64,000 nt of DNA, from assembly GCA_964016885.1 (NCBI GenBank), contig OZ024746.1, positions 80,104,001 through 80,168,000 of the forward strand. Reading direction: 5' to 3'. The position numbers and the translations under genes are program-made. Below are positions 41,625 to 41,822 of the stretch, piece by piece. Within the stretch, counting starts at the first letter, position 1. The number at the start of each line of letters is the position of its first letter. The notes below the pieces were generated by a model. The model made no database searches, had not been told where the DNA came from, and worked only from the letters and a program-made list of their open reading frames with translations. Source of the DNA: Eledone cirrhosa. Its lineage: Eukaryota.

Positions 41625-41822
41625 ATATTAACAAATGGAAATTATATTTATAAAACCATATTTATTTCATTATGCATATTTCAAGGACACCAAAGCAAAT
41701 TATGGTGCGCTTTCATCAGATAAAATATAATATATAATTACTCAAAAAATTTGTTGAGGGCTTTATATCAGTTATAAAAATATGTGCTTGTTGTATCCCA
41801 ACAAATTAAATATAACTTCTAC
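41620..41822. mobile_element. Family A-related element with internal inversion
   Basis: 41620-41730 is colinear with 9415-9530; 41735-41822 is the reverse complement of 9325-9410. Confidence 0.65.
41663..41727 (-). ncRNA. Type I minimal hammerhead ribozyme motif (intact core)
   Basis: TATTTTAT-CTGATGA-AAG c GCACCA loop TGGTGT c CTT-GAAA-TATGCA-TA/ATGAAATA. Confidence 0.75.

Follow-up and report, generated by a model that had tools for sequence, protein, structure and literature searches.

In the window, by which we mean the whole 64-kb stretch of DNA analysed here, positions 41663-41727 of the minus strand carry, in this order, stem I (eight pairs), CUGAUGA, a 30-nt stem II hairpin, GAAA, six letters, UA and the closing strand of stem I, an order that a descriptor scan recognises as the type I hammerhead arrangement (CUGANGA ... 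GAAA ... UH, closed by stem I). The locus is a hammerhead fold, whose self-cleavage is predicted from the letters; the preliminary description of this DNA had not given its strand. When both strands of the window were scanned with the descriptor, exactly three matches were found, namely this one, 32528-32593 (+) and 48254-48324 (+) (Table 1), and BLAST gave 43 matches to the motif among the 40 regions scored of 161 candidates. The motif sits in a truncated insertion of 250 nt, set in (TA)n, which consists of an inverted 147-nt 3' end and a direct tail. Both pieces end in (TA)n, (TA)n also flanks both ends of most of the loci L002-L030, and the tail resembles the tails of most of these loci as well. 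Judged by its sequence, the insertion is the minimal form of its element, and no ORF match was found inside the 64-kb window.

Table 1. Features of the hammerhead locus, related copies in the window and the coding element (window positions unless a locus is named)
Feature	Position	Strand	Basis or remark
Type I hammerhead ribozyme motif, subfamily A	41663..41727	-	descriptor match; stem II AAGCGCACCA/TGGTGTCCTT
Stem I 5' strand, 8 nt	41720..41727	-	8/8 pairs with 41663-41670
Stem I 3' strand	41663..41670	-	pairing in descriptor match
Catalytic core CUGAUGA (C3-A9)	41713..41719	-	exact match
Stem II and loop 2	41683..41712	-	C10.4 at 41709 opposite C11.4 at 41686; 10.2, 10.3 and 10.6 covary
GAAA, short near-palindromic helix III/loop 3, AUA site	41671..41682	-	sequence; predicted cut between 41671 and 41670
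Inverted, 5'-truncated 3' end (pLTR piece, no tail) of Penelope-like element	41588..41734	-	BLAST, 92-95% to the long family-A elements L324, L325, L327, L330
Direct 3' tail piece of the same insertion	41724..41840	+	87-91% to tail of L324-L331
Sister hammerhead, subfamily B, young copy	32528..32593	+	descriptor; at least 9 matches of 100% over 171 nt, itself included
Subfamily E hammerhead, damaged core	48254..48324	+	within palindromic insertion 47942-48481
Further subfamily B copy, A.C at 10.1	9457..9522	-	in inverted pair 9408-9590 / 9631-9833
ORF of the coding element	L132:2249-4279	-	677 aa; YRDD and YxC..YVG motif, read by eye

Across subfamilies, the loops TATATA, TATGTA and TGCGCA have the self-complementarity that helix III requires for a dimer. 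The copy at 41663 carries a private U-to-C change at 41674, which turns loop 3 into TATGCA, a form found in 44 genomic copies as against 7,646 with the family loop TATGTA; the contigs of runs X1, X4 and X5 almost all carry the family letter at this position. TATGCA pairs with itself only in a shifted register, and in the dimer helix the change amounts to two A.C mismatches. Because this rare change spoils self-pairing in the catalytic register, the copy is probably dead. An Rfam search of 41630-41790 gave no hammerhead family among its five matches (E up to 10), and for the whole window the 150 matches listed of 450 were microsatellite matches to miRNA families.

The stem II pairs, in order, are AU AU GC CC GU CG AU CG CG AU at 41663, AU GC GC CC AU UA AU AA CG AU at 32528 and GU AU AU CU GU CG AU GU AU UA at 48254. 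Between the first two, pairs 2 (A-U/G-C) and 6 (C-G/U-A) are compensatory, pair 5 differs on one side only (G-U/A-U) and pair 8 is broken in 32528. The preliminary description had stem II rewritten and yet paired between these copies. The pairing stands, with the exception of pair 8, but rewriting is too strong a word for 7 differences in 20 letters, and since the genome holds haplotypes intermediate between the two, the divergence was stepwise. The same C.C mismatch had been reported at the fourth position, and it is present at 41663 and 32528, while 48254 has C.U; similarly, the core, the AUA site and stem I had been taken as retained, which is true of the latter two but not of the core at N7 (U in 41663, A in 32528). 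The copy at 48254 does have, as described, a third stem II sequence with a nearly identical stem I, but its core, ATTATGA, departs at two positions. Both this core and loop 3 at 41674 are private damage, and the three window copies alone, with two compensatory pairs, are too few to reveal covariation.

Other elements of the window deserve mention. The palindromic subfamily E insertion at 47942-48481 contains two hammerheads, both damaged; besides the ATTATGA copy, the minus-strand one near 48105-48172 has lost stem I and has the core ATGATGA. Two more hammerhead-like motifs, belonging to other families, lie at 54995-55048 (+) and 55624-55671 (+), with a short stem II and a first pair of U.U or A.C; the family of the former occurs many times in the loci examined. 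A different repeat adjoins our insertion at 41388-41587 (+) and forms an inverted pair with 16797-17178. In it GAAA precedes CTGATGA (41535-41573; 17117-17155), and it could not be parsed as a type I, II or III hammerhead.

The nature of the host element emerges from other loci, where long insertions between inverted motif matches contain an ORF with RT and C-terminal GIY-YIG motifs. Hammerhead and ORF form 37 same-strand pairs within 2.6 kb; the subfamily A hammerhead lies about 1.0-2.0 kb downstream of the ORF in L324, L325, L327 and L330, and a distance of about 1-2 kb on the same strand holds for A, B, E, F and a sister family. The ORFs of E and B are mostly only 44-54% identical over matched stretches, while stem I and the core are nearly unchanged. 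Copies of the family show a pLTR with an inverted 5'-truncated copy and an optional tail. Pfam returned no match for any of five ORFs. A few ORF pieces, at L110:2007-3020 (-) and L044:1819-2799 (+) and in L033 and L034, presumably resemble Helitron helicase and LINE endonuclease or RT; they are unrelated neighbours. Read by eye against the Hydra-clade motifs of Craig et al., the ORF of L132 carries RWR, DKT and CxCx5C, with CxxC and CxH in L123, L128 and L326, and it is by such motifs, rather than by a tree, that we assign the host to the Penelope-like elements (EN+) with Hydra-clade motifs.

The family is very abundant. In a genome of 3.0 Gb we count about 82,000 exact-anchor copies of the motif; a 21-nt pattern from its 3' half has 26,616 exact matches genome-wide and its reversed control 10, so that the motif stands far above chance. 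A pattern of stem I and core matches 77,227 times with C at 10.4 and 4,651 times with another letter, that is 94% C (controls, 21 and 337 matches, respectively). The pair 10.4/11.4 is C.C or C.U in 338 of 351 copies, a count that leaves aside 60 copies from loci chosen for a letter other than C at 10.4, and in the same 351 the first pair of stem II, 10.1-11.1, is A-U in 207, G-U in 106 and G-C in 10. The closing pair G10.1-C11.1 typical of canonical hammerheads is therefore mostly absent, and its rarity is expected to lower hammerhead activity. Sister families with a very different stem I (ACTGC/GCAGT, ACAC/GTGT; for instance in L128, L298, L107, L305 and L322), whose 3'-half pattern matches 16,677 times against 30, retain the C.C mismatch at position 4 in 32 of 39 rows, which include misparsed or decayed copies. 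The flanks of L001-L292 also hold at least ten other type I hammerhead families that lack the position-4 mismatch, and 76 of the 337 descriptor matches in these loci have another stem I, with none in the reversed control.

For the covariation test, 418 motifs were extracted from 292 loci and the window (1.6 Mb) by the stem I, core and 3' anchors only, so that stem II pairing played no role in choosing or aligning them; removal of duplicates left 411, and of one copy with a 53-nt stem II region, 410. The sample is non-random, being enriched for the best matches to the window copies and for the start of contig C1, and including 50 loci picked for lacking C10.4. We used an R-scape-like implementation of our own rather than R-scape itself, with a G statistic corrected by APC and null alignments in which the Fitch substitutions of each branch were replayed at random columns, in four settings (two trees, one of them built without the tested columns, by two nulls). 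The pairs 10.2, 10.3 and 10.6 covary, with two-set E values of 0.0004-0.006 in all four settings, and they are the top three of all 1,176 column pairs; the other four of the seven stem II pairs (10.1, 10.4, 10.5 and 10.7) were not significant in these 410 copies. Stem II thus covaries across subfamilies and helix II is supported by covariation; the outcome that would have refuted the preliminary description, a larger alignment devoid of significant covariation, did not occur.

A second set of 388 copies, anchored on the core and loop 3 only (391 before double parses were collapsed) and analysed under two weightings, gave the same three pairs (E 6e-5 to 0.011 under both). In this set the outer pair of the loop-3 palindrome reached E 0.011 weighted and 0.10 unweighted, loop 3 remaining self-complementary across subfamilies, and none of six tested stem I pairs was significant, although stem I double changes are present among 19 representatives. 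When all columns were tested, only 10.6 (E 0.0025) and, depending on the weighting, 10.3 or 10.2 (E 0.03) passed 0.05 among the 388 copies; among the 410, no pair did (best 0.06), while one or two passed in the stem-II-only setting. In the 19 representatives, 96.2% of cells pair and both sides change in 15 of 21 pairs, and RNAalifold recovers stem II with position 4 open.

An obvious worry is that common descent of a few subfamilies, rather than covariation, produces the signal. Few independent events, about 2-4 per pair as counted by inspecting the deep events and haplotypes, do underlie the significant pairs, and a pair outside the structure, 11.4 with loop 3, reaches 203-224 in the 388 copies, near the true pairs, which shows how far shared ancestry can reach. 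The folding energy of single copies, moreover, is not better than that of shuffles (z -1.07, -0.17 and -0.99; three of four stretches not significant). Yet the null replays the substitutions of every branch on the tree, including one tree from which the tested columns had been left out; C-G and U-A replace each other at pair 10.6 in at least three separate groups (A versus B, E versus G/F, and two GGTCA families); and slid-register controls pair in 31-54% of cells, against 96% in the true register. We therefore regard an artefact of ancestry as extremely improbable. A tertiary partner of 11.4 in loop 3 was also rejected, because that score traces to subfamily E alone while other families with TG-type loops keep C11.4, and among 36 variable columns there was no independent covariation partner for 10.4 or 11.4 that might indicate a loop 1-loop 2 contact.

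A second question is where selection acted. On deep branches, defined as those with at least five copies at at least four loci, 22 of 27 changes kept pairing, compared with 40 of 121 on terminal branches of one or two copies (Fisher p 6e-6), and a tree built without stem II gave 24 of 29 against 49 of 136. This contrast argues that the RNA of source elements was under selection and that copies decay. Additionally, terminal branches yield G.U and A.C equally (20:21 and 25:23), whereas haplotypes at three or more loci show eight G.U pair types and two A.C types, one of the latter being an over-sampled loop variant of the 41663 copy (8:1 gives p 0.04). That G.U is favoured in repeated haplotypes and not among terminal changes speaks for RNA and for the sense strand. 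Among 60 loci chosen by the 3'-half pattern only, the 5' core was exact in 56 and had one mismatch in four; N7, which takes all four letters, alone among core positions differs from one subfamily to another, and C10.4 was present in all 60. A fixed core with a free N7 and an ever-present C10.4 is the signature of a hammerhead core and not of any hairpin. Private mutation rates by position class were set aside, as the selection of copies by exact anchor patterns biases them. Selection on RNA structure, which the preliminary description proposed, is thus upheld with its target corrected: given the private damage of the window copies, it is likely the active parent elements of each subfamily, rather than the 41663 copy, in which the fold was selected.

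In principle, mutation alone could produce compensatory changes, through template switching across a DNA hairpin and without any selection on RNA. Inversions are frequent in these elements, most compensatory changes are transitions, and five double changes also fall on terminal branches, all of which would suit such a process. Correction across a hairpin should, however, erase the mismatch at position 4, which nearly all copies keep; the retention of G.U but not A.C intermediates, a strand asymmetry, already largely refutes it; and the fixed core with its free N7 would go unexplained. We consider this origin highly unlikely.

Taken together, the fold, the covariation, the strand asymmetry, the link to the ORF and the decay of copies make it very probable, in our judgement, that the 3' terminal repeat of these abundant retrotransposons, Penelope-like elements with Hydra-clade motifs, contains a type I hammerhead fold, and that covariation of its stem II among subfamilies likely arose because active source elements needed their sense-strand RNA to fold and, by prediction, to cleave itself. 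The element would be transcribed through tandem ends, supplying two motifs; helix III being presumably too short alone, the two could pair via the self-complementary eight letters from A15.1 to U16.1, unless the element's protein assists folding instead. The predicted cut after AUA would then serve to trim the precursor RNA. This mechanism is proposed by analogy with PMC4209133 and PMC11167929. Each successful source element would spread thousands of truncated copies into (TA)n, where they would decay neutrally, and the 250-nt, inverted-plus-tail copy at 41663 would be one of them.

There is, nevertheless, a different purpose that the same fold might serve, namely to bind or position the element's protein, in template recognition or at the start of reverse transcription, with cleavage weak or incidental. 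Sequence conservation between A and B covers some 150 nt around the motif but not the upstream 3' UTR, which does not align; in copies of A, B, F and G a long hairpin continues stem I, and G10.1-C11.1 is mostly absent. Furthermore, for another Penelope-like element studied in vitro, the cited part of PMC11167929 describes cleavage as dispensable for insertion, with no RNA ends at the site. All catalytic core positions are nonetheless fixed, with only N7 varying, and loop 3 is self-complementary, which is the pattern expected of selection on catalysis; a role as a protein site, with cleavage weak or incidental, is accordingly one to which we give little credence. The difference between deep and terminal branches also shows that, in this lineage, fold-breaking source elements did not spread, which argues against pure hitch-hiking.

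How does the family compare with known systems? Craig et al. (2021; PMC8557442, in the part used here) tabulated the hammerheads of Hydra-clade Penelope-like elements, including a cephalopod member, Hydra-1_Obim, and raised both precursor RNA trimming and mere riding along as their role. With that clade, as that part of the source presents it, our elements share the C-terminal GIY-YIG, RW-K/R, DKT, CxCx5C, CxxC and CxH motifs and the lack of CCHH, the (TA)n targets, the inverted 5'-truncated copy with a tail, and a type I hammerhead close to the 3' end whose helix III is short and palindromic. They differ in a 3' UTR of 1-2 kb, in their approximately 82,000 anchor-exact copies, in a tail of about 100 nt compared with the quoted 30-40 bp, and in a stem II of 8-16 pairs with a fixed C.C or C.U at position 4, which occurs in none of the 26 Hydra-clade rows of File S2 (PMC8557442). 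Many rows of the clade have U.U at 10.1-11.1, so that G10.1-C11.1 is typical rather than obligatory (PMC8557442).

Cervera and De la Pena (2014; PMC4209133, again in part) described hammerheads in the ends of metazoan Penelope-like elements, with covarying consensus families within a genome; where helix III is short and palindromic, cleavage is weak and improves in dimers, and these ribozymes were proposed to process precursor RNA. They carry an additional nucleotide between 9 and 10.1, and their G10.1-C11.1 is conserved; in ours, 10.1-11.1 is mostly A-U or G-U, there is no bulge and the mismatch stands at 10.4. For one Penelope-like element, the hammerhead cut only in the presence of the element's protein, and two start sites of reverse transcription explain the tail (PMC11167929, cited part). 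Metazoan non-LTR retrozymes also carry type I hammerheads, dimer-dependent in amphibians and numbering up to about 126,000 per genome, but according to the cited parts of PMC7229834 and bioRxiv 10.64898/2026.07.22.740005 they are non-coding tandem repeats, whereas the present family is the end of an ORF-bearing element with dispersed or inverted copies. No retrozyme-type head-to-tail array (units of 170-400 nt, each with a hammerhead) was found at the three hammerhead sites among the 150 rows listed of 231, and this, together with the linkage to a coding element, does not fit a non-LTR retrozyme. To judge by its title, a paper by Lunse, Weinberg and Breaker from 2017 reportedly concerns small hammerhead variants associated with Penelope-like elements that cleave as dimers.

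Both the hammerheads of Hydra elements and the existence of covarying families in a single genome are, then, already published, and because of this the gain from our study is modest. The apparent differences are a long stem II whose position 4 holds a fixed C facing C or U, and the rarity of G10.1-C11.1, although Lunse et al. 2017 may already show the mismatch. In the portions of the literature covered on C-C mismatches in hammerhead stem II, R-scape on retrotransposon hammerheads and cephalopod Penelope-like ribozymes, no account of the family was found; its novelty may be affected by Lunse et al. 2017 and by supplementary figures in PMC4209133. One could speculate that the unpaired, fixed C10.4, opposite C or U and between covarying neighbours, signals a hammerhead class of novel structure. 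In such ribozymes stem I, or the protein of the element itself, would dock not on loop 2 but on a mismatch within a long stem II, so that cutting would be on only in the retrotransposon particle; we find this conceivable but rather unlikely. The family also amounts to a very large natural mutational scan, and the C10.4 mismatch offers biochemistry one precise target.

A last observation concerns the surroundings of the motif. At 41625-41662 (-), stem I of A, B and F is prolonged through TTTATAAAAC/GTTTTATAAA. Several inversion junctions (in the window at 41625-41662, and in L002, L011, L012 and L024) coincide with this repeat or lie close to it, and the repeat may be a template-switch point.
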